A DNA stretch of 64,000 bases from an uncultured Actinomycetota bacterium (GCA_963745595.1 CAVUYB010000033.1:349-64348), one strand, 5' to 3'; shown: positions 13,537 to 52,497, counted from the first letter of the stretch. Made by a program: numbers and translations. The notes: generated by a model from the sequence alone, not told the origin.

Positions 13537-13564
13537 TCAAGTAGGCGGGCCGGCGCGCCGATGA
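13537..13564 (+). promoter_or_regulatory. putative sigma-28 (FliA/WhiG)-type promoter upstream of fliA paralog 1: TCAAG-N15-GCCGATGA
   Basis: TCAA at 13537-13540, 16-nt spacer, GCCGATGA at 13557-13564. Same architecture as six other sites in the window. Confidence 0.55.
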
Positions 13565-13699
13565 CCGTTGAGGAAAACGCGATCACCCTGTCCAGAACTC
13601 CCTCCATCACGCCCGTCACCACCCTTTTTCGCCGCGAGAGAGAACCCCGGAGATGCCCGTGCCCGGCCCGTACCACCCACGTCGAACGGACGGCCGACG

Positions 13700-14581
13700 G
13701 TGCTCGGCCGAGAACGGGCGGCGACCGTCGTGACCGTGGCGGACCGACCGGTCGGGGTCGCGACGCCGGACGACGAGGACGTCGCCGCCCTCTGGCGCTC
13801 GTTCAAGCAGGACGGCAGCACGTCGGCCAGGAGCCGACTGGTGCACCTCTACTATCCGCTCGTCAAGCACGTCGCCCGGAACGTCGCGTCGTCGCTCTCC
13901 CGCCAGGCCGAGCTCGACGATCTCGAGGGCTATGGCGCAGAGGGGTTGATCGACGCCATCGACCGGTTCGACCCGGGCCGGGGTGTCCAGTTCCCGACGT
14001 TCGCCGCCCACCGGATCCGCGGCGCCATCTACGACGGGATCCGTAGCGTCGACTGGGTGCCTCGCAGCGTCCGTCGCAAAGCCCGGGAGCTCCAGGAGGT
14101 CCAGTCGGAGCTCAGCGCCACGTACGGCCGGCAGCCGACCGAAGAAGAAGAAGCGATGGCGCTCGACCTCAAGGTCAGTGCCCTCCGCCACAGCAAGGCC
14201 CAGGTGGCGACGGCGTTCGTCGCGTCACTCGACGCGCCCGCCCATCCCGAGGGTGGCCCGTCGACCGAGCCCGGGGACGGGGCCGACGAACCGCTCACGG
14301 CCTACCTGTCCCGTGAGGCCGGCCACACCGTGCGGGCCGCGATGTGCCGGCTGACCGAGCGTGAACGCACTGTCGCCACCCTCAGCTTCGGCCAGGGGAT
14401 GACGCTGGCCGAGATCGGCAAGACGCTCGGTGTGACCGAGAGCCGGGCCTGCCAGATCCGCAGCAGCGCGCTGAACCGGCTACGGATCTACATGCGGTCG
14501 CAGGGCATGGGCCCCGAAGGCGACTCGGCCGAGGAACGGCTCGTCGCGCCGGTCAGAGAGGTCGTCGACCAGGTCGGTTGA
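13700..14581 (+). CDS. fliA: FliA/WhiG-family flagellar sigma factor (paralog 1)
   Basis: Region 2 (LVHLYYPLVKHVA...LEGYGAEGLIDAIDRFDPGRGVQFPTFAAHRIRGAIYD) and region 4 (ERERTVATLSFGQGMTLAEIGKTLGVTESRACQIRSSALNRLR). Start is uncertain: the track ORF begins at 13568, but GC3 only rises after about 13700 (GTG candidates at 13700, 13730, 13736). Confidence 0.8.
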   Translation: MLGRERAATVVTVADRPVGVATPDDEDVAALWRSFKQDGSTSARSRLVHLYYPLVKHVARNVASSLSRQAELDDLEGYGAEGLIDAIDRFDPGRGVQFPTFAAHRIRGAIYDGIRSVDWVPRSVRRKARELQEVQSELSATYGRQPTEEEEAMALDLKVSALRHSKAQVATAFVASLDAPAHPEGGPSTEPGDGADEPLTAYLSREAGHTVRAAMCRLTERERTVATLSFGQGMTLAEIGKTLGVTESRACQIRSSALNRLRIYMRSQGMGPEGDSAEERLVAPVREVVDQVG

Positions 14582-15168
14582 CCCGGCCGGGTGATCCGGG
14601 CGATCCGTCGCCGGTAGTGATCGACGGCGGCCGGGCCCGGCTCGAGCCAGCGGTCTTCGACGACCGCGGTGAGGGAGCCTTTGCTGGTCGCCCCGGCCGA
14701 CAACGAGTCCCCGACGATGGTGGCCCAGCGCTGGGTGATCGCCCGGTGTACCCACCACTCGGCGTACGCCGAGAACCGGACACCGCGACGCCCGTCGAAA
14801 CGATCGGCCGCGTGGACGAGCGCGGCGTTGCCGGCCTGCACCAGCTCGACGAAGACCTGGGTCGTCGGGACCGGGTAGCGACGGACCTCGGCCATCACGA
14901 GCCGCAGGTTGGCCTCGACGAACGTCCGCCGGGCCCGCTCGCCGTCGTCGGCGACGGCCTCGAGCCGGGCCCGCTCGGCGCCGGTCACTCCGCCGGAACC
15001 AGCCGGTCGGCCTGGACCGGCCAGCTGGCTGGGACCGGCCAGCCGTAGCTGCGCCTCGGCGCCAGCGGCCACCGCCCGGGCCAGCCGTAGCTGGTCCGGA
15101 TAGGAGAGCAGATCGAGCTGTCCGACCTCCTGCTCGTAGTGGTGCAGGCGCTCGTCGCGATCGGGCAT
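14488..15168 (-). CDS. truncated sigma-70-like protein with regions 1.2 and 2 only (no regions 3/4)
   Basis: FVEANLRLVMAEVRRY, ELVQAGNAALVHAADRFDGRRGVRFSAYAEWWVHRAITQ. Its ATG (15166-15168) overlaps the TGA of the upstream fliA paralog (ATGA). Its 3' end overlaps the fliA-1 3' end by 94 nt (convergent). Confidence 0.55.
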   Translation of the reverse strand: MPDRDERLHHYEQEVGQLDLLSYPDQLRLARAVAAGAEAQLRLAGPSQLAGPGRPAGSGGVTGAERARLEAVADDGERARRTFVEANLRLVMAEVRRYPVPTTQVFVELVQAGNAALVHAADRFDGRRGVRFSAYAEWWVHRAITQRWATIVGDSLSAGATSKGSLTAVVEDRWLEPGPAAVDHYRRRIARITRPGQPTWSTTSLTGATSRSSAESPSGPMPCDRM

Positions 15169-15977
15169 CAGGACGCGGGCTCGCCGGCCCGCATGCGATC
15201 GAGCATCGACCGGATGGCGCGGGACCGGATGCGCGAGACCCGGCCCTCGGAGACGCCGAGGACGTCGGCGATCTCGCGCAGCGTCAGCTCGTCGAAGTAG
15301 TACAGCTCGAGCACCTGCCGCTGGCGGTCCGGCAGGTCGGCGATCCCCTCGCGGAGCACTCGGAGCTCCTCGGCCGCCTCGAAGGCGGCGGCCGGGTCGG
15401 TCGAGTGGTCGAGCAGGTGATCGGCTTCGTCCAGCTGGAGCTCGTCGACGGTGCCCCGAGCCACGTGGACCCGCAAGCGCTCGAACGCCTGCCGCGAGAT
15501 GCCCATCTCGGCGACGATCTCGTCCGTGGTCGGCGCGCGCTTGAGCCTGGTTTCGAGCTGAGCCGACGCGGTCGCCAGGGCTCGGGCCCGGGCCCGCACG
15601 GATCGTGGCGCCCAGTCGTCGGAACGGACGGCGTCGAGGATCGCCCCTTTGATGCGGGGGACGGCGAACGTCTCGAACTGGACGCCCCGGTCCGGCTCGA
15701 ACCGGTCGATGGCGTCGACCAGCCCGAAGACTCCCCAGTGGGTCAGTGAGTCGCGCTCGACGTGTCCGGGGAGCAGGGGCAGCATCCGGGCGGCGACGTA
15801 GCGAACGAGCGACAGGTACGCCGCGGTGAGCTCTGCCCGAACATCGCGGTCGCGGCCGTCGAAGAATCGCTGCCAGAGGGCGGCCGTGGTCGTGAGCGGC
15901 TCGGCCACTGGGCCATCGCCCAGGCCGAGGCCGTCCTCACTGCTCTGTGGCCACGCCGACACCGTAGCTGCAGACAT
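15168..15977 (-). CDS. fliA: FliA/WhiG-family flagellar sigma factor (paralog 2)
   Basis: ATG 15977 (residue 51 of ORF 15168..16127) lies 9 nt downstream of AGGAGG. Region 2 (GVFGLVDAIDRFEPDRGVQFETFAVPRIKGAILD) and region 4 (RQRQVLELYYFDELTLREIADVLGVSEGRVSRIRSRAI). Confidence 0.8.
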   Translation of the reverse strand: MSAATVSAWPQSSEDGLGLGDGPVAEPLTTTAALWQRFFDGRDRDVRAELTAAYLSLVRYVAARMLPLLPGHVERDSLTHWGVFGLVDAIDRFEPDRGVQFETFAVPRIKGAILDAVRSDDWAPRSVRARARALATASAQLETRLKRAPTTDEIVAEMGISRQAFERLRVHVARGTVDELQLDEADHLLDHSTDPAAAFEAAEELRVLREGIADLPDRQRQVLELYYFDELTLREIADVLGVSEGRVSRIRSRAIRSMLDRMRAGEPAS

Positions 15978-16053
15978 CTGGTTGGGACCTCCTAGGACCA
16001 GAAACGTATAGGACGCCGCCCGGCGAAGCGAACGGGGGTTGGAGCAGGCCCGT

Positions 16054-16081
16054 TCAAGATCGCCCGGGCCGGTGCCGATAG
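16054..16081 (+). promoter_or_regulatory. putative sigma-28-type promoter upstream of flbD-motAB-fliL: TCAAG-N15-GCCGATAG
   Basis: TCAA at 16054-16057, 16-nt spacer, GCCGATAG at 16074-16081. Confidence 0.6.
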
Positions 16082-16109
16082 GGCCTGCGGGGTCCCCCGT
16101 GCCCGCCGC

Positions 16110-16135
16110 CCTCTCGGGCGGGCGCACCCGAGAGG
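16110..16135 (+). promoter_or_regulatory. 5'-leader hairpin that sequesters the flbD Shine-Dalgarno-like GAGAGG
   Basis: 9-bp stem CCTCTCGGG (16110-16118) / CCCGAGAGG (16127-16135) with an 8-nt loop. The flbD ATG is at 16143. Confidence 0.4.
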
Positions 16136-16142
16136 CAGGGTC

Positions 16143-16433
16143 ATGATCATCGTCACCAACCTGAAGGGCGAGTCGATCGCCATCAACGACGAGCTGATCG
16201 AACGGGTCGAGGGGGACCGGGAGGCCCGGATCATCCTGACCGGGGGGGCCCGCTACATCGTCGCCGAGTCGCTCGACGAGGTCGTCCGGCGGTCGCGGGA
16301 GGACCGGGCGGTCGTGCGGGCGGCGGCCCGCCAGCTGCTGGACGGCGCCGTCCCGGGCGACGGCGCCGCTCTCCGCCTCCTCACCGCCGACGCGTCCGAC
16401 CCGCCGGAGGCGACCGAAGGCGAGACGCCGTGA
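16143..16433 (+). CDS. flbD: flagellar protein FlbD
   Basis: MIIVTNLKGESIAINDELIERVEGDREARIILTGGARYIVAESLDEVV matches the FlbD pattern. Located immediately upstream of motA. Confidence 0.85.
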   Translation: MIIVTNLKGESIAINDELIERVEGDREARIILTGGARYIVAESLDEVVRRSREDRAVVRAAARQLLDGAVPGDGAALRLLTADASDPPEATEGETP

Positions 16434-17221
16434 AGGACCGGCTCACTCCGATCGCCATCGGCGGGGCGCTCGTCTGCGTCGTCATCTCGATGGTGCTCGA
16501 CGGCGGGAGCCCGACCGTCCTGCTCAAGCCGGCCCCGCTGATCCTGGTCTTCGGCGGGACCGCGTGCGCGGCGGTCGCCGGTTGCCTGCGGTCCGACCTG
16601 AAGGGGATACGGCCCGTCCTTCGCAAGGCCATGGGGTCCACCACCCCCGACCTGGACGCGGCGATCGAGACGATGGTCAACCTGGCCCGCAGCGCCAAGA
16701 GCGGCACGATGCTGTCGCTGGAGGACGAGGTGCGGAGCATCGACGACCGCTTCCTCCAGCTCGGCGTGCAGCTGGCGGTCGACGGTCGCAGCTCGCAGGA
16801 GATCCGGGAGATCCTCGAAAGCGAGATCGACGCGATGGACCGCCGGCACCAGCTCGGGTCCAAGCTCTTCTCCGACCTGGCCGGCCTGGCGCCGACGCTG
16901 GGCATCCTGGGCACCGTCATCGGCCTGGTGCACGTCCTGTCCCACCTGGACAGTCCCGGCACCCTCGGTCCGGCCATCGGGTCGGCGTTCACCGCCACCC
17001 TGTGGGGGGTGCTCTCGGCCAACCTCCTCTGGCTGCCGATCGCCAACAAGCTGAAGCGGATCAGCGTCGCCGAGGTCCAGGTGAAGCAGATGCAGCTCGA
17101 AGGGCTGCTGACGATCCAGGCCGGCGGGTCGAGCCGGATCGTGCGGATCAGGATGGAGACGTTCCTGCCGGCCGCGGCCCGCGGTGACGGTGGGGCCGAG
17201 CGGCGGGCGGAGGCCGCGTGA
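16430..17221 (+). CDS. motA: flagellar stator protein MotA (MotA/TolQ/ExbB channel family)
   Basis: 263 aa, four TM segments, C-terminal LAPTLGILGTVIGLV...AFTATLWGVLSANLLWLPIANKL. 4-nt overlaps with both flbD and motB. Confidence 0.9.
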   Translation: MKDRLTPIAIGGALVCVVISMVLDGGSPTVLLKPAPLILVFGGTACAAVAGCLRSDLKGIRPVLRKAMGSTTPDLDAAIETMVNLARSAKSGTMLSLEDEVRSIDDRFLQLGVQLAVDGRSSQEIREILESEIDAMDRRHQLGSKLFSDLAGLAPTLGILGTVIGLVHVLSHLDSPGTLGPAIGSAFTATLWGVLSANLLWLPIANKLKRISVAEVQVKQMQLEGLLTIQAGGSSRIVRIRMETFLPAAARGDGGAERRAEAA

Positions 17222-18012
17222 CCGCCGGCCGGCGCCCGACGGCGGGCGGGTCCGAGAGCGAGGGGCCCGGTATGGAGCGCTGGCTGCTCACGTACGCCGA
17301 CATGATCACGCTGCTGCTCGCCCTCTTCGTGATCCTCTTCGCCCTGAGCTCGATCAACGAGAAGAAGTTCGTCGCCTTCAAGCTCGGGCTCTCCCAGACG
17401 TTCACCAACTCGCCGGTGACGAAGGCGTCGGCCAGCGGCAACGGACTGCTCCAGCACACAGGGCTCATCTCGCACAGCGCGACCGCGTCGGCGAGCGCGC
17501 CAGCCCCGGCGGCGGCCACCACCGGTGCCTCGACGCCCAGCCTGAGCCAGATCGCCACGGAGATCGAGCAGGCCCTGCAGGCCGCCGGGTTGACCCAGGA
17601 CGCCAGCACGACGACGACGACCCGCAGCGTCGTCGTCCAGGTGCTCGCCGACAAGGCCTACTTCGCCCTCGACTCGGCCACACTCGGGACCGTCGGCGAC
17701 CAGGTCGTCGACACCATCGCCGGGGTCATCACCGGCGTGCCCAACGACGTCGCCGTCGAGGGCTACACCGACAACCAGCCGATCTACGGCGGGCCGTACG
17801 CGTCGAACTGGCAGCTCTCGGCGGCCCGCGCCGCCAACGTGGCCCAGCGGCTGGCCACCGTCGACGGGATCGCCGAGGCCCGGCTCTCGGCCGTCGGCTA
17901 CGGCGAGACGCACCCCCTCGTCCCGGACACCAGCCCGGCCAACCAGGCCGAGAACCGGCGGGTCGACGTCGTCATCCTCGCCCCCGGGACCAGCGGAACG
18001 AGCACGCCGTGA
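17218..18012 (+). CDS. motB: flagellar stator protein MotB (OmpA-like C-terminal domain)
   Basis: ERWLLTYADMITLLLALFVILFALS plug/TM segment. OmpA-like VEGYTDNQPI...SNWQLSAARAANVAQRL...RLSAVGYGETHPL...NRRVDVVIL. Confidence 0.9.
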   Translation: MTAGRRPTAGGSESEGPGMERWLLTYADMITLLLALFVILFALSSINEKKFVAFKLGLSQTFTNSPVTKASASGNGLLQHTGLISHSATASASAPAPAAATTGASTPSLSQIATEIEQALQAAGLTQDASTTTTTRSVVVQVLADKAYFALDSATLGTVGDQVVDTIAGVITGVPNDVAVEGYTDNQPIYGGPYASNWQLSAARAANVAQRLATVDGIAEARLSAVGYGETHPLVPDTSPANQAENRRVDVVILAPGTSGTSTP

Positions 18013-18014
18013 CG

Positions 18015-18607
18015 ATGCCCACTGCATCAGGTCCGACGGCACCAGGGCAGGCGCCGGGTGCGCCGGGCGGTCGAGCCGGCGACGGCGCACCTCGCCTCTC
18101 GTCGGTCGACCGGCGGCCACCGAACGGTGCCGGCGCTGGCGTTGGCGCCGCGCCGAGTCGAACGAAGCCCAGAAGCCGACCGGGAAGAAGAAAAAGAAGG
18201 TCGTCGTCATCCTGGCGATCGTGGTCGTGCTCGTCGTCGCCGGCGCGGTCGTCAAGCTCGAGACGTCCAAGACCGTCTACCGCCCCGGCCAGCCGGTGCC
18301 GGCCGGGCCGGTCGTCTCGCTCGGCACGGTCACCGTCGCTCTCTCGGACGGCCACCTCGTCCAGGCCACGATCGCCTTGCAGATGACGAAACCGGCGAGC
18401 CAGACCGAGGAAGCCAACGACTCGGCCCATCTGGAGGACGTCGCGGTCACAGTGCTCGGCCAGCAGAGCTACGCCGGGCTGCTCGCGTCGCCCGGCCGGA
18501 CGGCGGCGCAACAGCAGCTCCTCACCTCGTTCCAGCAGGTTCTCGGGCCGGCCGACGGCGCGCCACAGGTCAGCGCGGTCTACTTCACCGGCTTCGTCCT
18601 CCAGTAG
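18015..18607 (+). CDS. fliL: flagellar basal-body-associated protein FliL; N-terminus appears frame-shifted near 18170
   Basis: ORF 18221..18607 matches the FliL periplasmic domain. In the same frame upstream lies KPTGKKKKKVVVILAIVVVLVVAG, the typical FliL Lys-rich segment plus TM helix, but with no start codon. The only start-bearing frame is ATG 18015 (frame 0), 3 nt after the motB stop. Confidence 0.65.
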
Positions 18608-18632
18608 GGCGATGACCGCGGTCGGAAATTCC

Positions 18633-18660
18633 TTCATCGCCGGCCGCGACGTGCCGATTG
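18633..18660 (+). promoter_or_regulatory. weaker sigma-28-like promoter upstream of flgN-flgKL-fliW: TTCA-N16-GCCGATTG
   Basis: GCCGATTG at 18653-18660, TTCA at 18633-18636. The flgN GTG lies at 18668, only 7 nt after the -10 element, so the transcript may be leaderless. Confidence 0.35.
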
Positions 18661-18667
18661 AAGAACC

Positions 18668-19171
18668 GTGGAACCACTGACTCGGGAGGCGCTCGAACGG
18701 CTCGCCCGGAGCCTCGAGGAGCAGCTGGTCGCCCTCCGTCACCTCTGCTTCAAGTTCGAGGTCCAAGAGATCGTGCTGTCCGGTGGCCGCCACCAGTGGC
18801 TGAACGAGACGACGGCCGAGCTCGAGCGGGCGGTCGCCGACGTCCGGGGGTGCGATGCCGACCTCCGCCAGGCGCTCGTCGCCGCCGGAGTGGCGCTCGG
18901 GCTGTCGCCGGAGGCGACGGTGCGGGAGGTGGCCGTGACCGCGCCCGAGCCGTGGGGCTACATCTTCGACCAGCACCGCACCGAGCTGCAGCAGCTGCTC
19001 GACCGCGTCGGGGCCCTCAGCCGGGCCAACCGGAAGCTCCTGGCCCACGGCCACGCGGCCACCGTCGCCGCCCTGGCGTTCCTCGGCGTCGAGGCGCCGA
19101 CGTCGTACGACGCCAGCGGCGCCCTGACCCCGACCGGCGGGAGCCTCGGCCTGCTCGACGCGAGGGCCTGA
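18668..19171 (+). CDS. flgN: FlgN-like flagellar export chaperone
   Basis: 167-aa helical protein immediately upstream of flgK, the FlgN/YvyG position. LEEQLVALRHLCFKFEVQEIVL...LQQLLDRVGALSRANRKLL. Confidence 0.55.
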   Translation: MEPLTREALERLARSLEEQLVALRHLCFKFEVQEIVLSGGRHQWLNETTAELERAVADVRGCDADLRQALVAAGVALGLSPEATVREVAVTAPEPWGYIFDQHRTELQQLLDRVGALSRANRKLLAHGHAATVAALAFLGVEAPTSYDASGALTPTGGSLGLLDARA

Positions 19172-19172
19172 G

Positions 19173-20549
19173 ATGGACGAGGCCATGAGCATCGCCGCGT
19201 CGAGCCTCAACGCCGAGCGGGTGGCGATGACCGCGACGTCCGAAAACGTCGCCAACGCCCAGACGCCCGGCTACGTCGCCGAGACCGCGCAGGTCAGTAC
19301 GCTGCCCGGCGGTGACAGCCTCGGCGTCGGGGACGGCGTCGAGGTCACGACGGTCAGCCAGGCGACGAACGCGCTGCTCGCCGCCAACAACTGGCAGGCC
19401 CAGGGCGCGCTGGCCAACCTCGGCTCCCTCCAGCAGTCGCTGACGGCCATCGAAGACGTCTTCCCGCTGGCTTCCGAGCCGTCGACGAGCGCGTCGAGCA
19501 CGACAACGAACGCCAGCCTCTCTGGCCAGCTGGCCAACTTCTGGTCGGCCTGGGACGCGATCGCCGAGGCCCCGTCGTCGCTCGCCCCGAGGACCGAGAT
19601 CGTCAACATGGCCCAGGGTCTCGTCACGAGCCTGAGCGAGGCGGCCACCCAGTTGACACAGGTGCAGACGAACAGCACCGAGCAGCTCGGCAACCAGGTC
19701 GAGCAGGTCAACTCCCTGCTCTCCCAGGTGGCCGAGCTCAACCAGTCGATCGTGACCACCGAGGGCAGCGGGGCGAGCGCCAACCAGCTCGTCGACCAGC
19801 TGAACGCGGCGGTCAGCACACTGTCCGAGCTGGCCGGCGTCGACGTCCGGATGCTCGGCAACGGCACCGCCGCCGTCTCGATCGGCGGCGTCGCCGTCGT
19901 GCAAGGCGACAACGCGGCGACGCTCTCGCTCTCGACCACCGGTGGCGTCACCTCCGTCGTCGCCAACCCCGGCGGCGTCACCGCGCCGATCTCCAGCGGG
20001 TCGATGGCAGGCCTGCTCTCCTCCCTCAACCGCTACCTGCCCGACTACCGCCAGCAGCTCGACACCGTCGCCGACGACCTGGCATCGACGGTCAACAGCC
20101 GGCTGGCCGCCGGCTACACCGCGTCCGGCACATCGGGTGCCACAGACCCGCTGTTCGTCGGGACAGGTGCCGCCGGCCTCACCGTCAACCCGGCCGTCGT
20201 CGCCGACCCGATGCTGCTCGCGGCGTCGGGCACCGCCGGTGCGGCCGCCGCCAACGACGGCAGCAACGCCCAGGCGGTGGCCGAGCTCGGCACCGTCACG
20301 ACCGGTCCGGACGCCGCCTACCAGACCCTCGTCCAGAGCATCGGGGCCGACACCCAGAACGTCAACAGCCAGCTCGAGGCCCAGACCTCGGTGGCCAATC
20401 AGGCCGAGCAGGCGCAGCAGGCCGTGTCCGGCGTGAACATGACACAGGAGCTGACCAACCTGGTGACCTTCCAGCAGAACTACGAGGCGTCGGCCAAGCT
20501 CATGACCGTCGTCGACGCCACCGTCCAGTCACTCCTGACAGCGGTGTGA
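19173..20549 (+). CDS. flgK: flagellar hook-associated protein 1 FlgK
   Basis: N-terminal SSLNAERVAMTATSENVANAQTPGYV and C-terminal VSGVNMTQELTNLVTFQQNYEASAKLMTVVDATVQSLL. Confidence 0.9.
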   Translation: MDEAMSIAASSLNAERVAMTATSENVANAQTPGYVAETAQVSTLPGGDSLGVGDGVEVTTVSQATNALLAANNWQAQGALANLGSLQQSLTAIEDVFPLASEPSTSASSTTTNASLSGQLANFWSAWDAIAEAPSSLAPRTEIVNMAQGLVTSLSEAATQLTQVQTNSTEQLGNQVEQVNSLLSQVAELNQSIVTTEGSGASANQLVDQLNAAVSTLSELAGVDVRMLGNGTAAVSIGGVAVVQGDNAATLSLSTTGGVTSVVANPGGVTAPISSGSMAGLLSSLNRYLPDYRQQLDTVADDLASTVNSRLAAGYTASGTSGATDPLFVGTGAAGLTVNPAVVADPMLLAASGTAGAAAANDGSNAQAVAELGTVTTGPDAAYQTLVQSIGADTQNVNSQLEAQTSVANQAEQAQQAVSGVNMTQELTNLVTFQQNYEASAKLMTVVDATVQSLLTAV

Positions 20550-20562
20550 GGAGGCGGCCCGC

Positions 20563-21504: not shown

Positions 21505-21532
21505 CCGGCCGCGTGGACGACGAGGAGGCGAC

Positions 21533-22024
21533 GTGACCGAGATGGCCGTCACGACCGGACCGAGGTCCGTCGACGACGAGCGCGCGCCCGACGAGCGTGT
21601 CCTCGAGTTCGTCCGGCCGATCATCGGCTGGGAGGAGTCGACCCGGTTCGCGCTCCGCTCGCTCGGCGCCGAGTACGCGCCGTACCTGACGATGACGTCG
21701 CTCGACCAGGCCGGGCTCCAGTTCGTCGTCGTGCCGCCCGGGCGACTGTTCGCCGACTACGTCATCGAGGTTCCCGCGGCCGACCGCCAGCTGCTCGGCC
21801 TCGACGACCGCGCCGATGCGCTCGTGCTCGCCATCGTGCGGCGCCGCAGTGTCGCCACTCCGGTCGTGAACCTGATGGGCCCCATCGTCGTCAACCGGCG
21901 GACCGGCCACGCGACGCAGGTCGTCCTGCAGGACGCGGCCTACGGCGCCGCAGTGCCCGTCGACGCCGGTACGGCGCGCCCGCTCGGCGGCTCAGGTAGT
22001 ACGGCCCGCCCTCCAGGGGGCTAG
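21533..22024 (+). CDS. fliW: flagellar assembly factor FliW
   Basis: GTG 21533 (or ATG 21542) follows GAGGAGG. LEFVRPIIGWEESTRFAL...QFVVVPPGRLFADY...VVNLMGPIVVNRRTGHATQVVL matches FliW. Confidence 0.85.
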   Translation: MTEMAVTTGPRSVDDERAPDERVLEFVRPIIGWEESTRFALRSLGAEYAPYLTMTSLDQAGLQFVVVPPGRLFADYVIEVPAADRQLLGLDDRADALVLAIVRRRSVATPVVNLMGPIVVNRRTGHATQVVLQDAAYGAAVPVDAGTARPLGGSGSTARPPGG

Positions 22025-22048
22025 GCAGTACGGCCGCCCGTCGGCCGG

Positions 22049-22630: not shown

Positions 22631-22722
22631 TCGTCGCTCCCTCCACGCCGGCCGGCTGGCCGACCGATCAGCCGTCCGTAGCGGACCGTCGCCCAAACCG
22701 TACCCGGCGGGCCGGCCGCGGA

Positions 22723-23043: not shown

Positions 23044-23053
23044 GGTCCCGCCT

Positions 23054-42499: not shown

Positions 42500-42506
42500 T
42501 CGACCG

Positions 42507-45169: not shown

Positions 45170-45910
45170 GAAGCCGTCGCCCGAGAAGGCATCGCCGGGA
45201 ACGCAGCCCGGGAAGCAGGCGAAAGAGCCGAGTCATCTCCCGGCCGGGCGGCCCGTTGCCGTCCGCGTCGCTGTTGGCCAAGGCCGGCCCGACCCGGTCG
45301 GCCGAGTGGCCGGTCGTCCCGACCTCGACCGAGCACCGTCTGGAGCAGGCCCGCCAGGCGGGCTTCGCCGACGGGCACCGGGCCGGGCTCGAGGAGGCCG
45401 CATTCACGTCCGAGGGGGCCCGGCTGGCCGCGGCCACCCGGGCCGCCGACCGGCTCGCCGCGGCGGCCGCCGACGTCGGTGAACAGCGGGCCGCGGTCGT
45501 CGCCGAGCTCGTCACCGACGTCGTCGGCCTCGCCTTCGAGCTGCTCGAGATCCTCGTCGGTCGGGAGGCCGCGCTGAGCGACGCCCCGGTCCGGGACGCC
45601 GTCGTCCGGGCGCTCGCGCTCGCCCCGGAGGGCGACGACCTGCTGGTGCGGGTCCACCCCGACAGCGGGATCGGCGTCGCGGAGATCGAGCAGCTCGCCG
45701 CCGACCCCCGCGTCACCGTCGTCCACGACCCCGACGTCGAGGCCGGCGGCTGTCTCGTCAGTGTCGGCCCGTGCCACATCGACGCCCAGATCGCCCCGGC
45801 ACTCGCCCGGGTCCGGGCCTGCCTGGAGTCGCTGACCCCGCCGGCCGTCGGACCGGCTGGCGGATCGGTTGTCGGATCGGTCGTCGGGGACGGCCGGAGG
45901 GCCGTCGTGA
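45153..45910 (+). CDS. fliH: flagellar export ATPase regulator FliH; N-terminal frame change near 45255 and no in-frame stop before fliI as assembled
   Basis: ATG 45153 overlaps the fliG end. High-GC3 sense moves from frame 0 to the frame of ORF 45256..47262 near 45250-45265. The FliH core is RLEQARQAGFADGHRAGLEE...VRVHPDS...GGCLVSVGPCHIDAQI. A TGA at 45908-45910 exists only in the +1 frame. Confidence 0.6.
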
Positions 45911-47262
45911 CCCTCTTCTCGTCGCCGGTCCTACGGGCATCGCTCCGTTCGGCGGCCCAGCCCCGTCGGACCGGGCGGGTGACCCGCCTGGTCGGCTTGC
46001 GGGTCGAGGTCGAGGGGATCGACGCCGCGGTCGGCGAGGCCGTATGGATCCAGCGAGCCGCCGGTGACGTCCTGCCGGCCGAGGTCGTCGCCGTCCAGGG
46101 CGGCAGCTTGGCCTGCATGCCACTCGGTGAGCTGTCCGGCGTGCGCTACGGCGACGTCGTCGAGGCCGCCGGCCGGCCGCTGCCGCTGACGGTCGGTCCG
46201 GCCATGCTCGGCCGCGTCGTCGACGGCCTGGGCCGGCCGATCGACGACGGGCCGCCGATCGTCGAAGGCGAGGATGTCGGCATCGACGCGACGCCGCCGC
46301 ACCCGCTGCGTCGCGAGATGGTCGACCGACCGCTCGCTCTCGGTGTCCGCGCCCTCGACACCGCGGTGCCGTGTGGCCGCGGCCAGCGCCTCGGCATCTT
46401 CGCCGGGTCCGGCGTCGGCAAGTCGAGCCTGCTGTCGATGATCGCCCGCGGCACCGATGCCGAAGTCTCCGTCGTCACGCTGATCGGCGAGCGCGGCCGT
46501 GAGGTCAGCGAGTTCATCCAGCGCGACCTCGGACCCGAGGGTCTCGCCCGTTCGGTCGTCGTCGTCGCCACCTCCGACCAGCCGGCTCTCGTGCGCATCC
46601 GGGCCGCGTTCACCGGCACCCGGATCGCCGAGTGGTTCCGCGACCAGGGCAAGGACGTCGTGCTGATGATGGACAGCCTGACCCGGTTCGCCATGGCCCA
46701 GCGCGAGGTCGGCCTCTCCGCCGGCGAGCCCCCCGCGACCCGCGGCTACCCGCCGTCGGTCTTCTCGCTGCTGCCGAAGCTGCTCGAACGGGCCGGCGCG
46801 GCCGAGCGGGGGAGCATCACCGGGCTCTACACCGTCCTCGTCGAGGGCGACGACATGAACGAGCCGATCGCCGACGCCGCTCGGTCGATCCTCGACGGCC
46901 ACGTCGTCCTGTCGCGGCGGCTCGCCACCGCCGGCCACTTCCCGAGCATCGAGGTGCTCGACTCGATCTCCCGGGTCGAGCCGGCCATCACGACGACCGA
47001 GCAGCGGGCGCTCGTGCGCGAGCTTCGACGACTGCTCGCCGCCTACCGCGACGCCAAGGACCTGATCGAGATCGGCGCCTACGCCAAGGGCGCCAACCGG
47101 CTGGTCGACCGGGCCATCGAGCTGCGCGAGCTGATCGACGCCTTCTTGTGCCAGGAAGTTTCGGTGACGTACCCGGCCACCGAGTCGTGGGCGTGTCTGG
47201 CCGCCCTGCTCGCCCCGGTCACTGCGCTGGTGGGCACTGCGCCGGTGGGGGCAGCGTCGTGA
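45907..47262 (+). CDS. fliI: flagellum-specific ATPase FliI
   Basis: Candidate GTG at 45907. Walker A GSGVGKSSL, Walker B VVLMMDSLTRFA, then GSITGLYTVLVEGDDMNEPIADAARSILDGHVVLSR. Confidence 0.9.
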   Translation: MTLFSSPVLRASLRSAAQPRRTGRVTRLVGLRVEVEGIDAAVGEAVWIQRAAGDVLPAEVVAVQGGSLACMPLGELSGVRYGDVVEAAGRPLPLTVGPAMLGRVVDGLGRPIDDGPPIVEGEDVGIDATPPHPLRREMVDRPLALGVRALDTAVPCGRGQRLGIFAGSGVGKSSLLSMIARGTDAEVSVVTLIGERGREVSEFIQRDLGPEGLARSVVVVATSDQPALVRIRAAFTGTRIAEWFRDQGKDVVLMMDSLTRFAMAQREVGLSAGEPPATRGYPPSVFSLLPKLLERAGAAERGSITGLYTVLVEGDDMNEPIADAARSILDGHVVLSRRLATAGHFPSIEVLDSISRVEPAITTTEQRALVRELRRLLAAYRDAKDLIEIGAYAKGANRLVDRAIELRELIDAFLCQEVSVTYPATESWACLAALLAPVTALVGTAPVGAAS

Positions 47263-47690
47263 GCCACCGCTACCGCTTCCGGCTGGCCGCCGTTCTCCGC
47301 GTGCGCCAGGCCGAGGAAGGACAGGCCGCCGAGGCGCTGCGACGGGCCAACACCCGGGTACGCGAGCTGCTGGCCGTACGTGACGAAGAGGCCGCCCGGT
47401 ACCGGTCGCTCGCCGTCACGAGCGGGCCGATGACCGCGACCGAGCTGCGCCAGGAGCGGGCAGTCGCCGCGCTGGTGGCCGACACGGTGGCCGCCGCCGA
47501 CCAGGCCGCCATGACCGCGGCCGCGAACGCCGCGCTGGCCCAGGTGGCATGGTCCGAAGCAGCCCGTCGGGTCACCGTGCTCGAGCGGCTGGACGAGCGC
47601 CGGCGGGCCGAGCATGCCGACGACGAACGGCGGGTCGAGATCACCGAGGTCGATGATCTCGTGACCGCCCGGCACGGGGTGTCGGCATGA
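47259..47690 (+). CDS. fliJ: flagellar export protein FliJ
   Basis: GTG 47259 overlaps the fliI TGA. 143-aa coiled coil: FRLAAVLRVRQAEEGQAAEALRRANTRVRELL... Location fits fliJ. Confidence 0.7.
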   Translation: MSHRYRFRLAAVLRVRQAEEGQAAEALRRANTRVRELLAVRDEEAARYRSLAVTSGPMTATELRQERAVAALVADTVAAADQAAMTAAANAALAQVAWSEAARRVTVLERLDERRRAEHADDERRVEITEVDDLVTARHGVSA

Positions 47691-48886
47691 CCGACACCCT
47701 CTCGGCGATCCAGGGATGGATCACACAGGTCCAGTCCCAGATGGCGAGCGTCCCGGCCCAGATGGACGACGTGGCGCCGACCGGCGACTTCGCGTCCGTG
47801 CTCGCCCGCGTCGACTCGGTGCTCACCGCGGGTCCGTCGGCGGCGGCCGCGTCGGGAACCGACGCCGCCACACCGGACGCCACACCGTTCTCGTCCGTCG
47901 GGTCGGTCACATCGGCGAGCGCGGCGTACGGAACGGCGGCCACTGCCGGTCGCGGGTCGACCGGGCTGGCCGGCTCGTCGGCCGGCAATGCGGTCGTCAA
48001 CGAAGCCGAGCGGTTCGTCGGCACGCCGTACGTGTGGGGCGGCACCACCCCGGCCGGCTTCGACTGCTCCGGGCTCGTCCAGTACGTCTACGGGCAGCTC
48101 GGCGTCGACCTGCCCCGCACGAGCGAGGAGCAGGCCACCGTCGGCACCGCGGTACCCAGCCTGGCCGACGCCCAGCCAGGCGATCTCGTCTTCTTCGCCG
48201 GCAGCGACGGGACGACCACATCGCCCGGCCACGTCGGCATCTACGTCGGCCACGGCGAGATGATCGACGCGCCGTACACCGGTGCAGACGTCCGGATCGA
48301 ACCGGTCGGCACACCGGTCGCCATCCGCCGCGTCCTGCCGGCGACAACGGCTGCCACCAACGGTCTTGGCACCAACGGTCTTGGCACCAACGGTCTTGGC
48401 ACCAACGGTCTTGGCGCGAGTGGTCTTGGCGCCGCCGGGCTCACCGGGACGGCCGCGACGGCGACCGCCGGTGCAGGGGCGACGGCTGGCACAGCCGGTA
48501 GCGGCGTGCCGGCCACACTGGCGCCGCTCTTCGTCCAGGCCGCCGGCCAGTACGGCGTCCCGGTCACCTTGCTCACCGCGGTGGCCAAGCACGAGTCGGA
48601 TTTCGAGCCGAACGTGGTCAGCTCGGCCGGCGCGGAGGGGATCATGCAGATCATGCCCGGCACCGCGGCCGGGCTCGGCATCAACCCCTTCGACCCGGCC
48701 CAGGCGATCGACGGGGCGGCCCAGCTGCTGTCCGGCTACATGACCCAGTTCGGCTCGATCCCACTGGCCCTCGCCGCGTACGACGCCGGTGCCGGCGCGG
48801 TCGAGGAGTACGGCGGCATCCCGCCGTACGCGGAGACGCAGAACTACGTCACGGCCATCATGCAGGCGATCGGCGGCGCCGCGTGA
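47687..48886 (+). CDS. bifunctional peptidoglycan hydrolase: NlpC/P60 endopeptidase domain plus SLT lytic transglycosylase domain (FlgJ-like role by position)
   Basis: NlpC/P60: GTPYVWGGTTPAGFDCSGLVQYVY...GHVGIYVGHGEMIDAP. SLT: LLTAVAKHESDFEPNVVSSAGAEGIMQIMPGTA...AAYDAGAGAV. ATGA overlap with fliJ and GTGA overlap with fliK. Confidence 0.8.
   Translation: MTDTLSAIQGWITQVQSQMASVPAQMDDVAPTGDFASVLARVDSVLTAGPSAAAASGTDAATPDATPFSSVGSVTSASAAYGTAATAGRGSTGLAGSSAGNAVVNEAERFVGTPYVWGGTTPAGFDCSGLVQYVYGQLGVDLPRTSEEQATVGTAVPSLADAQPGDLVFFAGSDGTTTSPGHVGIYVGHGEMIDAPYTGADVRIEPVGTPVAIRRVLPATTAATNGLGTNGLGTNGLGTNGLGASGLGAAGLTGTAATATAGAGATAGTAGSGVPATLAPLFVQAAGQYGVPVTLLTAVAKHESDFEPNVVSSAGAEGIMQIMPGTAAGLGINPFDPAQAIDGAAQLLSGYMTQFGSIPLALAAYDAGAGAVEEYGGIPPYAETQNYVTAIMQAIGGAA
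48356..48430. repeat. in-frame 15-bp tandem repeat (accaacggtcttggc x4 plus 1 degenerate; peptide TNGLG)
   Basis: Read directly. Forms the linker between the NlpC/P60 and SLT domains. Confidence 0.85.
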
Positions 48887-50502
48887 CCGTCTTCGCGCTG
48901 CCTGGAGTACCCGCCTCCGCGGCGCCGAACGTCGGTCCGGCGGACGCGCCCGACCACCCGCCGGAAGGCGACGACGCCGGGGGCGGGTTCCTCGCCGCCC
49001 TGCAAGCCGCCACATCGGGGCGCGACACCGGCGCCCCTGGCTCGACGGCCGCGGCCGACCAGACGTCTACTGAGCCGGCGTCCTCTGGGCAGCCGCTCAC
49101 GGGGCAGTCATCCAGTGGGCAGACGCCGCCGACTGGCATCGACGGTCCTTCCACCGCGGGTGCCGCCGCGACGGGGTTCTCAGGCGACGACGGCACCGGG
49201 ACGGCGGCGCCGACCGGTGACGGGAGCGGCAGTGCCTCAGGATCGGCGACGTCACCGACGACGAGCCACCGTTCGCGGCATGGCCAGAAGGACGCCGCCG
49301 CCGAGGACCGGTCGACCGCGACCGCCCAACCGTCGTCCACCGGCGCCGACAGCCCGGTGCCGACGAGCGGGTCCGACGGTCCGGCGACCCCGATCGTGAG
49401 CGGCACCCCTCCGACCGCGACCGCCACACCGGCCACCGGGCCCGCCACCGGTCTGGCCGTCGGGGGGAGCATCCTTGGCCCGGCGACGGCGTCGGGCGTC
49501 GCCACGACGTCGACGTCGGCGAGCAACCCGAGCCCCGACGGGGCAGCGGCTGCCGTGGGCAGCGGGGCGGCGATCGCGACGACCGCCACCCTGGCCGCCG
49601 GCGGCGATGGACCGGCCGGTGGCGCGCCACCGGCCGGCGCAGTCACGGCGCCGGTCACGGCGCCGATCGGATCTTCGACGATCTCGGCGCCGTCGCCCGG
49701 GACGCCGACAAGCGGCGCCACCGCGACGGTTTCGAGCTCGACATCGGGGTCCCAGCCCGCCGGTCCAGCGGTCACGCCGTCCGGCCCGGCGTCGACGACG
49801 GACGCGACTGCCGCCGCGACCGCGGGGTCGACCCGGACGGCGCCCATCACCGAGCCGGCCGCCTCGACCGGACCGTCTACGGCGGCCGGTGGTCCGACCA
49901 CGCCCACGGCCGGCCAACCCGGTCCGGTCGCGGGGAGCTCGGCGCCGGCCGGAACGATGCCGGTCACGCCGATGCCCGCGGCCCCACCGACCGCGACGAC
50001 GCTGCCGGTCGTGCGTCCGCCGTCGACGACGGACATGCCGGGGGTGGCCGGTCAGCTGGTCGACGTCCTGTCGCCACCGCGGCCGACGGCTGGCGGGACG
50101 TACACGGTGACGATCGCCCTCCATCCCGACGAGCTCGGCGAGGTGCGGGCGACGGTAACGGCGGGCGAAGACCAGGTCACGGTCCGGCTGGTCGCGGCGA
50201 CCGGCGACGGCGACGACGCCCTCCGCCAGGCCCTGTCGCAGCTCCACGCCGACCTTTCGATCGGGGGCCAGCGGACGACGGTGACGGTCGGCGGGCGCGG
50301 CGACGACGCGCCGACCGGATGGACGGCCGGGCAGCCGACGTCCGACGGGCAGGCCGACGGACGTCCGGAGCCGAAGAACGGGGCGGCGGCGAACGGGACG
50401 TCGGTCGGCGATGCCCCGGCGGGTCGTGACGGGCCGCCGACCGGGTCGACGGTCGCCGACGGGACGACGGGCACCGAGCGGCTGATCGACGTGCGGGTGT
50501 AG
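48883..50502 (+). CDS. fliK: flagellar hook-length control protein FliK
   Basis: Long Pro/Ala/Thr/Gly-rich ruler region, then the C-terminal Flg_hook-like domain: TVTIALHPDELGEVRATVTAGEDQVTVRLVAATGDGDDALRQALSQLHADL. Confidence 0.75.
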   Translation: MTVFALPGVPASAAPNVGPADAPDHPPEGDDAGGGFLAALQAATSGRDTGAPGSTAAADQTSTEPASSGQPLTGQSSSGQTPPTGIDGPSTAGAAATGFSGDDGTGTAAPTGDGSGSASGSATSPTTSHRSRHGQKDAAAEDRSTATAQPSSTGADSPVPTSGSDGPATPIVSGTPPTATATPATGPATGLAVGGSILGPATASGVATTSTSASNPSPDGAAAAVGSGAAIATTATLAAGGDGPAGGAPPAGAVTAPVTAPIGSSTISAPSPGTPTSGATATVSSSTSGSQPAGPAVTPSGPASTTDATAAATAGSTRTAPITEPAASTGPSTAAGGPTTPTAGQPGPVAGSSAPAGTMPVTPMPAAPPTATTLPVVRPPSTTDMPGVAGQLVDVLSPPRPTAGGTYTVTIALHPDELGEVRATVTAGEDQVTVRLVAATGDGDDALRQALSQLHADLSIGGQRTTVTVGGRGDDAPTGWTAGQPTSDGQADGRPEPKNGAAANGTSVGDAPAGRDGPPTGSTVADGTTGTERLIDVRV

Positions 50503-50551
50503 CGGTGCGACGGCACCAGGGCGGTGGGTCCGCCGGAAGAGGAGGACGGCA

Positions 50552-51010
50552 ATGACGATCGGATCGATCACGAACTCGACGGCTGCGCCGACGGCGGCCG
50601 GCACGTCGGCGGCCGGCACGTCGGGAACGAGCTCGTCGACATCGACGACAAACTCGAACGAGGTCAGCCAGCTCGACAACCCGGACCTGTTCATCAAACT
50701 GCTGATGGCCGAGCTGGAGAACCAGAGCCCGACAAGCCCGACGACACCGAGCTCGATCCTCCAGCAGACCTCCGAGCTGTCACAGGTGGAGGCCGTCACG
50801 TCGATGACGAAGGCCGTCGACCAGCAGGAGCAGGTCTCGGAGAACAGCGAGGCGACGAGCCTCGTCGGTCAGCAGGTGACGGCGGTCGTCGGCGGGACCA
50901 CGGTCAGCGGCGCCGTCTCGGACGTGACCCTCAGCAGCTCGGGGTCGCCCGTGCTCGACGTCGGCGGGACGCAGGTCCCACTCTCGTCGGTGACCCAGGT
51001 CGGGAGCTGA
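50552..51010 (+). CDS. flgD: flagellar hook capping/assembly protein FlgD
   Basis: DLFIKLLMAELENQSPTSPTTPSSILQQTSELSQVE ... SLVGQQVTAVV. Confidence 0.85.
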   Translation: MTIGSITNSTAAPTAAGTSAAGTSGTSSSTSTTNSNEVSQLDNPDLFIKLLMAELENQSPTSPTTPSSILQQTSELSQVEAVTSMTKAVDQQEQVSENSEATSLVGQQVTAVVGGTTVSGAVSDVTLSSSGSPVLDVGGTQVPLSSVTQVGS

Positions 51011-51029
51011 TCTCTCGATCGTCCCAGCT

Positions 51030-51073
51030 CACGACCCAGCGAACCGCACGACCCAGCGAACCGCACGACCCAG
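51030..51073 (+). repeat. intergenic 17-bp tandem repeat (cacgacccagcgaaccg, 2.6 copies) between flgD and flgE
   Basis: Units at 51030-51046, 51047-51063 and 51064-51073 (partial). Confidence 0.8.
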
Positions 51074-51131
51074 TCAGCCAACCCGACGCAGTCCGAAGAA
51101 CGACCCAACAACGAGTGACAGGAGCAGAACC

Positions 51132-52436
51132 ATGGCAGAGCGTTCCCTTCTCGCAGCGGTCTCCGGCATCGATGCCAACCAGACCCTGCTCGACGAGATC
51201 GGCGACAACATCGCCAACGCCGACACCGTCGGCTACAAGGCCGGCCAGGTCGAGTTCGGTGACCTGCTGAGCGAGCAGATCGCCGGGGCGACCGCGCCGG
51301 GGGCCACGTCCGGCGGGACGAACCCGGTGGCTGTCGGGTCCGGCGTGCTCGTCACTTCGGTCGGCACCGACCTGACAGAGGGCTCGCTCGAGTCGACCGG
51401 CAACCCGAACGACGTGGCCATCCAGGGGTCGGGGTACCTCGTCGTCGACAAGGGCGGCCAGCAGCTCTACACCCGGGACGGTGCACTGACACCGGACGCC
51501 GCCGGCAACCTGACCGTCGACGGCGGCGTCGTGATGGGCTGGGCGGCCAACGCGGCGGGGACAATCAACACGAACGCCCCGCTGACGGCCATCCAGATCC
51601 CGACCGGCCAGACGATCGGGGCGACCGCGACGACCGAGCTGACGCTCGGCGGGAACCTCCCGGCCTGGGACGGCGTGGGGACCCCGCCACAGATCACGGT
51701 CACGACATACGGCTACGACTCCCTCGGCGCGGTCGTCCCGGTGACGTTCACGTTCACCGGCGTGGCCGGGACGGCCAACCAGTGGACGATCCAGGGGACG
51801 GTGCCGAACCCGGGCGGTGGGACGGACGACCTCTTCACAGCCACCGCGTTGCCGACGATGAGCTTCAACCCGACGACCGGCCAGATCACAGCGATCACCG
51901 GCGCCACCGTCGGGGCGAACGGCACACTGTCGTTGAAGGTCACCACCATGCCGGCCGGGTACACGTTCCCGACAGGCGATACGTGGAGCGTCGACTTCCC
52001 GGCGCCGGGGTCGACCGGCTCGGTGACCCAGTACGACAGCCAGCAGACGCTCGGCGTCCGCGGCCAGGACGGCTACCCGGCCGGCGCGCTGGAGAGCTAC
52101 TCGATCAGCAGCGACGGGGTGATCACCGGCTCGTTCTCCAACGGCCAGACCCGGGCGATCGCCCAGCTCGCCATGGCTTCCTTCGCCAACCCCGGTGGAC
52201 TGGTGGACCAAGGTGGTGGGCTCTTCGCCACCACCCCCAACTCGGGCCAGGCTCAGGTCGGCGTGGCCGGCACCGGCGTGCTCGGCACCTTGCTCGGCGG
52301 CCAGCTGGAGCAGTCGAACGTCGACATGGGCACCGAGCTGACCGACCTCATCACCGCCCAGGAGGCGTACGAGGCGAACACGAAGGTCGTGACGACGACC
52401 GAGCAGGCGGTGCAGGCGCTCGAGACGATGAGCTGA
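51132..52436 (+). CDS. flgE: flagellar hook protein FlgE
   Basis: MAERSLLAAVSGIDANQTLLDEIGDNIANADTVGYK ... LEQSNVDMGTELTDLITAQEAYEANTKVVTTTEQAVQAL. Confidence 0.9.
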   Translation: MAERSLLAAVSGIDANQTLLDEIGDNIANADTVGYKAGQVEFGDLLSEQIAGATAPGATSGGTNPVAVGSGVLVTSVGTDLTEGSLESTGNPNDVAIQGSGYLVVDKGGQQLYTRDGALTPDAAGNLTVDGGVVMGWAANAAGTINTNAPLTAIQIPTGQTIGATATTELTLGGNLPAWDGVGTPPQITVTTYGYDSLGAVVPVTFTFTGVAGTANQWTIQGTVPNPGGGTDDLFTATALPTMSFNPTTGQITAITGATVGANGTLSLKVTTMPAGYTFPTGDTWSVDFPAPGSTGSVTQYDSQQTLGVRGQDGYPAGALESYSISSDGVITGSFSNGQTRAIAQLAMASFANPGGLVDQGGGLFATTPNSGQAQVGVAGTGVLGTLLGGQLEQSNVDMGTELTDLITAQEAYEANTKVVTTTEQAVQALETMS

Positions 52437-52469
52437 TCGCGGCGAGCGCGCTGATCGGCGAAACGGGGC

Positions 52470-52497
52470 TCAAGTACCGGCCCCGACGTGCCGATAG
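52470..52497 (+). promoter_or_regulatory. putative internal sigma-28-type promoter upstream of fliM: TCAAG-N15-GCCGATAG
   Basis: TCAA at 52470-52473, 16-nt spacer, GCCGATAG at 52490-52497. Lies in the 141-nt gap after flgE. Confidence 0.6.

Follow-up and report, generated by a model that had tools for sequence, protein, structure and literature searches.

Flagellar transcription units in a 64,000-nucleotide (64-kb) stretch of DNA from an uncultured Actinomycetota bacterium (GCA_963745595.1, CAVUYB010000033.1:349-64348; hereafter the window, meaning the whole stretch analysed) share a two-box element, TCAAG-N15-GCCGAT, placed ahead of their first genes. The pattern is confirmed as a real feature of the flagellar cluster. 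By its sequence and conservation the element is very probably a promoter for RNA polymerase carrying a FliA/WhiG-type (sigma-28) sigma factor, heading flagellar operons. Eight of the nine transcription units inferred carry it: fliA1, flbD-motAB, flgN-flgKL-fliW, flhA-orf-csrA, the glycosyltransferase operon (with a weak -35 box), fliC, flgB...flgE and fliM...flhB. The exception is fliA2-sig3, a regulatory rather than a structural unit. All seven sites named in a preliminary description of this DNA were recovered where that description had placed them.

The strict pattern TCAAG-N15-GCCGAT was searched on both strands of the window, with 100 dinucleotide-preserving shuffles as the null. It occurs five times (13537+, 16054+, 26623-, 36826+ and 52470+), against zero in each of the 100 shuffles, and allowing one mismatch adds a single site, at 41307+ (flgB; TCCGAT). 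The two strands together contain about 53 copies of TCAAG and about 52 of GCCGAT[AGT]N, so that only about 0.03 pairs are expected by chance at the exact spacing; the earlier statement that five exact matches lie far above chance is thus upheld. The preliminary description had suggested a matrix scan with an enrichment test against shuffled sequence, and this was run within the window. A position-weight matrix built from the two boxes only gives the six sites 21.1-24.2 bits and the next-best position in the window 15.0 bits, while in Markov-simulated sequence the maximum averages 15.2 bits and reaches 18.6 at its highest. The six sites all lie in short non-coding gaps, which by the gene map make up an estimated 4% or so of the cluster, and each points towards the flagellar gene that follows; the flgN and glycosyltransferase variants described below are placed in the same way. 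Nowhere inside a gene or in the wrong orientation does a position come close to these scores, contrary to what the preliminary description had named as a refuting outcome. The G+C content of the window is 71.7%. The six sites have the form cTCAAg-N15-[G/T]CCGAT[A/G], and they are listed here together with two weaker ones (P, promoter; GT, glycosyltransferase).

13536-13564, plus strand: P_fliA1, gTCAAG-N15-GCCGATGA, an exact match scoring 21.1 bits
16053-16081, plus strand: P_flbD, tTCAAG-N15-GCCGATAG, an exact match heading flbD-motA-motB-orf185
18633-18660, plus strand: P_flgN, TTCAT-N15-GCCGATTG, a variant with spacing one base shorter
26596-26624, minus strand: P_flhA, cTCAAG-N15-GCCGATAC, an exact match
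36798-36770, minus strand: P_GT, CTTGAG-N15-GCCGATGG, degenerate, 12.5 bits in the window
36825-36853, plus strand: P_fliC, cTCAAG-N15-GCCGATAG, an exact match
41306-41334, plus strand: P_flgB, cTCAAG-N15-TCCGATGA, a one-mismatch match heading flgB...flgE
52469-52497, plus strand: P_fliM, cTCAAG-N15-GCCGATAG, an exact match in an internal position

Conservation was followed in 21 related loci covering both halves of the cluster, with genes mapped by tblastn (loci are denoted by L and a number). The closest genomes, MFD04434.bin.1.50 (97-99% protein identity) and MFD04540.bin.2.6 (89-97%), are both labelled uncultured Actinomycetota; after them, at 49-75% identity, come relatives that carry the labels Acidimicrobiales, Acidimicrobiaceae or Ilumatobacteraceae. 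From these labels the lineage of the window is Acidimicrobiia-like and lies outside the Actinomycetes, in which the biology was studied. The matrix finds the flbD site in all seven relatives that cover flbD; the flhA site in L083, L085, L087 and L088; the fliC site in L068, L069, L073 and L074; and the fliA1 site, with altered spacers, in L082, L083 and L085. The flgB site is present in L068-L071, L073-L075 and L077-L081, with none above threshold in L072 and L076, and is retained even where the gene has been relocated. Orthologous sites are found down to 49% FliF identity, rearranged gene orders included. In L073, L074 and L076, fliM follows flgE by about 15-60 nucleotides (nt) and no site there exceeds the threshold. 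In more distant Acidimicrobiia and other phyla (L002-L067) no motif was found near fliA, which is uninformative as fliA lies inside operons there.

Because sites picked by the matrix are circular evidence, upstream regions were also aligned with the start codon as the sole anchor. Apart from TCAAG and GCCGA, no contiguous block is invariant upstream of flbD in six lineages, and the same holds upstream of flgB in seven lineages apart from T.AAG and CCGAT; upstream of flhA, in four lineages, CTCAAG, CGAT and one leader block are invariant. The spacers are fully different between lineages and the flanks have diverged. In these three alignments, then, the boxes are kept while the spacers have turned over, which is how the proposed comparison of orthologous intergenic regions came out, and in sequence terms the two-box pattern reads as a clear phylogenetic footprint of a promoter.

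The promoter class follows from both boxes. For the actinobacterial WhiG1/WhiG2 sigma factors, Denis et al. 2026 (PMC13595943) give a consensus of -35 xT(C/A)Ax, a 16-nt spacer and -10 GCCGA, and the window element matches it as c-T-C-A-a, then g plus 15 nt, then GCCGA. The earlier assignment of the -10 half to the sigma-28/SigD/WhiG type stands, GCCGAT(A/G) being a hallmark of that family. TCAAG had also been set apart from the canonical -35 box; it does differ, but by only one base from TAAAG, and at the published C/A degenerate position. The flgB -35 box is CTCAAG in the window, L068, L069, L071 and L075 (GTCAAG in L070) and CTAAAG in L073, L074 and L077-L081, and L073 and L074 have CTCAAG at fliC and CTAAAG at flgB within one genome. 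Since orthologous promoters carry either variant, C or A, TCAAG marks no new specificity.

Among the individual promoters, the flgN site, which had been described as having a weaker -35 box, is real: its -10 box is kept in six of the six lineages examined, and its -35 box has diverged in L084 and L087. It reads CTTCAy-N15-GCCGATnn in the window lineage (with its close relatives L082 and L083), L085 and L088. The flgN GTG start codon (18668 in the window) lies exactly 7 nt past the -10 octamer in five of six lineages, a distance that predicts a leaderless or nearly leaderless flgN-flgK-flgL-fliW mRNA. The internal fliM site noted after flgE is likewise borne out, by an exact match in the 141-nt gap between the two genes. 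The glycosylation operon was originally thought to lack the motif, and this has to be revised: a degenerate CTTGAG-N15-GCCGATGG is present, and nine lineages retain its -10 box and its N15 spacing. Its -35 box is CTTGAG or CTCAAC across lineages, and the L077 version, CTCAAC-N15-GCCGATAC, scores 18.8 bits. The fliC and glycosyltransferase promoters stand back to back (36770-36853). In the window GCTCAAGTCG is duplicated, at 36793 and 36825, with one copy for each of the two promoters; L073 and L074 have one CTCAAG/CTTGAG hexamer that acts as the -35 box of both promoters, on opposite strands. A candidate csrA promoter, CTCACC-N15-GCCGAGAA (22756-22728, minus strand, 9.9 bits), was rejected: it lies inside the 3' end of the preceding open reading frame (ORF) and is absent in L085. 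As it was the sole candidate, csrA is probably transcribed with flhA, as the last gene of that unit.

Gene identities throughout come from Pfam and NCBIfam scans and from direct translation. Three genes of the cluster belong to the sigma factors:

13568-14581, plus strand: fliA1, a FliA/WhiG-family sigma factor (Pfam r2, r3 and r4; TIGR02479); these are the ORF limits, and the true start codon is further downstream
14488-15168, minus strand: sig3, a short sigma-like ORF with Sigma70_r2 and a weak r1_2 match
15168-15977, minus strand: fliA2, a second FliA/WhiG-family sigma factor (TIGR02479)

FliA1 and FliA2 score 200.1 and 203.1 bits against the TIGR02479 FliA_WhiG cut-off of 189.6, and are 36% identical to each other; the nearest solved structure to FliA2 is Streptomyces WhiG, followed by FliA structures. 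From their family and position we infer that FliA1 and/or FliA2 would be the sigma factors that recognise the element. Upstream of fliA2 there is no sigma-28-type site in five lineages (the best matrix score ranges across them from 1.1 bits, the window value, to 6.3 bits), in agreement with the preliminary description, which had seen none. The presence of the motif at fliA1 and its absence at fliA2 in five lineages point to fliA2 as the likely entry point of the cascade. A TAnnTT hexamer (TACGTT, TATCTT, TACCTT), read by eye, stands about 25-31 nt before the fliA2 start codon in the window (15978-16010, minus strand), L085 and L086, and may be a housekeeping-type -10 box. The sig3 start codon overlaps the fliA2 stop codon (ATGA), and at its 3' end sig3 shares about 94 nt with fliA1, which converges on it. 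Its product has sigma regions 1.2-2 only, without regions 3 or 4. The family comprises 11 clusters of 213-242 amino acids (aa), all region-2-only, the short ORF is kept in L082, L083 and L085, and its next relatives are full-length primary-like sigma factors. An FlgM domain was not found in the window ORFs scanned, a scan that was non-exhaustive for small ORFs and excluded the genome beyond the window, and no FlhDC match turned up in Pfam scans of window ORFs.

The arrangement that we consider most likely is a two-level circuit. Another input, either a housekeeping-type promoter or a further regulator, would switch on fliA2-sig3; FliA2, or FliA1 itself, would then switch on fliA1, and FliA1 would reinforce FliA2. 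The FliA holoenzyme would transcribe the structural, motor, export, filament and glycosylation operons together, early and late alike. At each promoter, sigma region 4.2 would read the -35 box cTCAAg, in which the T(C/A)A core has C at its variable position, regions 2.4/3.0 would read the extended -10 box GCCGAT(A/G), and transcription would start about 7 nt past the octamer. The flgB...flgE operon covers the rod, MS ring, FliG, export ATPase and hook. Together with flhA and fliM-flhB it is among the early operons carrying high-scoring sigma-28-type sites, a departure from the classical three-tier enterobacterial cascade, in which early (class 2) operons have sigma-70 promoters and sigma-28 is confined to late genes. 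The preliminary description had proposed that export-gate and rod/MS-ring genes and one fliA would be under a FliA-type sigma factor, in a flat or autoregulatory scheme rather than the classical cascade. The gene map supports the former, as the flhA, flgB, fliM and fliA1 units all lie behind such promoters, and the latter is supported in a modified form, flat and partly feed-forward, with fliA2 outside the motif set. That the early operons depend solely on FliA-type promoters is a narrower claim, to which we incline with some reserve.

Several observations weigh against this reading. The FliA dependence of the units and their start sites are predictions from sequence. Additional housekeeping promoters may lie upstream of the early operons, where the sigma-70 scan is uninformative. 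The 12.5 bits of P_GT are within the noise on the window alone. The fliM site is kept, with changed spacers, only in the close relatives L068 and L069. Lastly, L087 has no such site upstream of its fliA1-like gene, and autoregulation is hence not universal.

Among other explanations, dual promoters would preserve a two-tier order: the sigma-28 sites would only boost flgB, flhA and fliM, and an upstream housekeeping promoter would drive their primary, FliA-independent transcription. The Bacillus subtilis fla/che operon has both kinds of promoter, PA alongside PD-3. The lack of a motif at fliA2, with the TAnnTT hexamer in three lineages, indicates that housekeeping-type promoters are probably used in the cluster, and those of actinobacteria are too degenerate for consensus scans; a consensus sigma-70 scan of 13000-27200 and 36500-56400 returned zero sites, a result that is uninformative for a 72% G+C actinobacterium. 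However, no other conserved block is found 5' of the -35 box in the flbD, flhA and flgB alignments, which argues against a second conserved housekeeping promoter. The gaps are short (141-258 nt) and mostly taken up by the sigma-28 element and the leader, and no such second tier was found in Actinoplanes missouriensis (PMC13083903). We regard dual promoters as unlikely. A non-promoter role, as the operator of a DNA-binding regulator or as a dispersed repeat in intergenic DNA, is far more improbable still, and we give it very little weight. All that the copies have in common is two short boxes a fixed distance apart; their spacers and flanks are unrelated, which is not what a mobile repeat would show. 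The boxes lack symmetry and in every case point the same way as the gene that follows; the -10 box is a sigma-28 hallmark with cognate sigma genes adjacent; and the flgN copy holds the exact 7-nt distance to the start codon, as would a promoter of a leaderless mRNA.

A hierarchy could also be hidden within the FliA tier itself, if FliA1 and FliA2 preferred different sites (for example octamers ending in ATAG versus ATGA/ATAC) and acted in the order fliA2, fliA1 and then a second class of operons. The region 4.2 helices of the paralogs do differ (TESRACQIRSSAL versus SEGRVSRIRSRAI), only fliA1 lies behind the motif, and the window sites split into GCCGATAG (flbD, fliC and fliM) and GATGA/GATAC (fliA1, flgB and flhA); in A. 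missouriensis the regulons of FliA paralogs overlap only partly (PMC13595943). Yet the octamer endings vary from relative to relative, being ATAG, ATTC, ATCC, ACAC, ATAC or ATGA at flbD and ATGA, ATCA or ATAG at flgB, and the ATAG class joins a late operon (fliC) with an early one (fliM-flhB). Such paralog-specific ordering seems rather improbable to us, if a little less so than dual promoters.

The remaining genes of the cluster are arranged as follows:

16143-18615, plus strand: flbD-motA-motB-orf185 operon (Pfam FlbD, MotA_ExbB, MotB_plug and OmpA)
18668-22024, plus strand: flgN-flgK-flgL-fliW operon (Pfam FlgN, FlgK_D1, Flagellin_N/C and FliW)
22049-22630, minus strand: long csrA (Pfam, TIGR00202; three matched stretches)
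24437-26507, minus strand: flhA, split into two frames (FHIPEP positions 1-158 and 165-656 in different frames)
27127-36711, minus strand: glycosyltransferase operon (Pfam GT2 and GT4 domains), presumably for flagellin glycosylation
36970-37851, plus strand: fliC, flagellin (from translation), followed by fliD-fliS-orf110
41437-52436, plus strand: flgB-flgC/fliE-fliF-fliG-fliH/I-fliJ-(NlpC/P60+SLT hydrolase)-fliK-flgD-flgE (Pfam)
52578-57625, plus strand: fliM-fliN-fliO-fliP-fliQ-fliR-flhB (Pfam; FliQ from sequence)

The fourth gene of the flbD operon had been named fliL, a name that we do not retain, as orf185 (18058-18615) gave no FliL match, or any other, in the Pfam and NCBIfam scans. Relative to L083, which like L085 and L087 has flhA in frame, the window gene has one extra A near 25991. 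An ArsP-type permease (60241-61567) is likewise split into two overlapping ORFs, and both splits are probably assembly indels; if the flhA frameshift were real, flhA would be a pseudogene and the organism non-flagellate. A single ORF at 45256-47262 (plus strand) carries FliH, ATPase and type III secretion system (T3SS) ATPase C-terminal domains, which points either to a seeming FliH-FliI fusion or to an ORF that runs on through G+C-rich DNA. Two small ORFs of 51 and 87 aa, with overlapping stop and start codons, occupy 26662-27077 (plus strand), flanked by the flhA promoter on one side and by the glycosyltransferase operon's end on the other; the 87-aa ORF has a weak ParE_toxin match (E = 0.08), and the two may be a toxin-antitoxin pair inserted in the flagellar cluster. 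Between fliC and fliD there is a GC-rich hairpin (37864-37886). A terminator scan gave no more matches than shuffled sequence does. At gathering thresholds Rfam identified only a tRNA (10249-10321, plus strand) and no known leader RNAs. Upstream of the flagellar cluster, large ORFs at 2128-3825 and 6115-8496 (both minus strand) have Ig-like or unknown domains and internal repeats with periodicities of about 336 nt and about 126 nt, inferred from regular short-motif matches and nested ORFs.

The flhA, flgB, fliM and fliC leaders share a 5'-proximal hairpin, an invariant block of 11-13 nt in distant relatives, whose stem is G+C and whose five loop bases are A(G/A)GAC:

26572-26582, minus strand: flhA leader element GCCAGGACGGC, stem GCC/GGC and loop AGGAC, 13 nt past the octamer
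41372-41382, plus strand: flgB leader element CCCAGGACGGG, stem GCCC/GGGC and loop AGGAC
52509-52519, plus strand: fliM leader element GCCAAGACGGC, loop AAGAC, 11 nt past the octamer
36861-36949, plus strand: fliC leader, with three hairpins, namely one with loop AAGAC (36861-36881; element 36866-36876), a 12-bp stem, and CUGCAC-AUGGAC-GUGCAG (36930-36949)

In all four flhA lineages aligned, GCCAGGACGGC is an 11-nt invariant block 10-13 nt past the octamer (L083, L085, L087 and L088 carry the element). At flgB, GCCCAGGA(C/T)GGGC lies 33-37 nt past the octamer in eight of ten leaders and is the sole consensus helix, invariant in sequence and without covariation; the flgB leader element is also present in L068-L071, L075 and L077-L081. 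The fliC hairpins are followed by a GGAGGA ribosome-binding site, and L073 and L074 retain both this site and the GGA hairpin. The fold energy of the fliC leader has a z-score of -3.0, with none of 200 shuffles folding as well, and for the flhA, fliM, flgB and flbD leaders no minimum-free-energy z-score reaches significance. Over 20 loci, 17 of the 35 copies of the leader motif fall in the 0.39% of sequence just 3' of promoters, where 0.14 would be expected, a comparison that overstates independence because the motif was defined after the leaders had been seen and the lineages are related. Within the window, CCAGGACGG also occurs inside genes as Gln-Asp-Gly codons; within-window enrichment is therefore not clean, and the case for the leader motif rests on cross-lineage conservation.

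The leader hairpin may bind CsrA or stabilise the 5' end of the mRNA. CsrA prefers GGA in hairpin loops, and the 5' hairpin loops of fliM and fliC in the window are AAGAC, without GGA. CsrA binds GGA motifs in mRNAs (PMC4894983). The CsrA encoded here is about 190 aa long with three CsrA-like repeats, versus the usual monomer of about 65 aa, and fliW is adjacent on the opposite strand. Long CsrA proteins of this family, 172-247 aa in length, make up at least 62 protein clusters, from Acidimicrobiales where the organism is named. These features suggest post-transcriptional CsrA-FliW control, perhaps with the sigma fragment, in place of an FlgM checkpoint. A more specific scheme would have a flat FliA tier without FlgM, assembly order set post-transcriptionally through A(G/A)GAC hairpins bound by the three-repeat CsrA, FliW titrating CsrA, and sig3 modulating FliA or RNA polymerase and so replacing FlgM; taken as a whole this is speculative, and we would not expect it to hold in every part. 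The leader hairpin and the long CsrA are places in which the missing assembly checkpoint might be sought.

Sigma-28-headed flagellar operons are already known from other Actinomycetota, and their presence here is unsurprising to a specialist; more original are the conserved leader hairpin, the long multi-repeat CsrA and the region-2-only sigma gene beside fliA2. The closest studied system is that of A. missouriensis, in which 11 flagellar transcription units all have promoters recognised by FliA1/FliA2 (PMC13083903, summarising Jang et al. 2016 and Hashiguchi et al. 2020). There, loss of FliQ leaves flagellar transcripts unchanged, and the authors conclude that no hook-basal-body checkpoint acts on transcription and suspect post-transcriptional control (PMC13083903). 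The two systems are alike in having flagellar units headed by FliA-family promoters and several FliA paralogs in or near the cluster. A. missouriensis features a TcrA activator that turns on fliA genes and a tie to sporangium development. It belongs to the Actinomycetes, unlike the Acidimicrobiia-like uncultured lineage of the window, which is known from sequence alone; in the latter, by contrast, one fliA is without the motif, and the cluster has fliW, a long CsrA and the region-2-only sigma gene.

Denis et al. (PMC13595943) predict that in Actinoplanes, Cellulomonas and Geodermatophilus several WhiG sites fall within the flagellar clusters; flagellin and FlbD are the targets met most often, WhiG/FliA are their own targets in some species, and FlgM is reported to be absent from almost all actinobacterial flagellar clusters. 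The promoter architecture of their WhiG1/WhiG2 set is identical to that of the window. Unlike the mainly late-stage role that they describe, the rod, MS-ring, C-ring and export-gate operons here hold the best-scoring sites. Their paper does not mention Acidimicrobiia, and in the literature searched the sole paper joining Acidimicrobiia, flagella and FliA is a phylogenomic survey in which promoters are not mentioned.

Compared with the classical sigma-28/SigD class 3 promoters of Enterobacteria and Bacillus subtilis (TAAA-N15-GCCGATAA), the window promoters have the same -10 octamer, with TCAA in place of TAAA and a spacing from the TCAA core to GCCGAT of 16 versus 15. A FliA-family sigma factor is used there and would be used here, with flagellin and motAB among its targets. 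In the classical systems, however, sigma-28 serves late genes only, early genes being driven by sigma-70 with FlhDC or by SigA, and FlgM makes sigma-28 activity depend on a finished hook-basal body, whereas no FlgM domain was found here among the ORFs tested. The presence of fliW and csrA in the cluster, and of a GGA-loop hairpin and a GGA-rich ribosome-binding site in the fliC leader, recalls the Hag-FliW-CsrA homeostasis of Bacillus subtilis, Campylobacter jejuni and Clostridioides difficile. The window differs from that system in its three-repeat CsrA of about 190 aa and in having conserved AGGAC-loop hairpins, as candidate CsrA sites, in the early flhA and flgB leaders as well.

The conserved promoter set, including the predicted leaderless flgN mRNA and the back-to-back fliC and glycosylation promoters, should be usable for annotating metagenome-assembled genomes of this kind. 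Earlier experiments concerned Actinoplanes only, and predictions a few genera of Actinomycetes; the window would extend the one-tier FliA-driven regulon to an Acidimicrobiia-like branch, which supports the view that both this arrangement and the absence of FlgM through loss go back far in the phylum.

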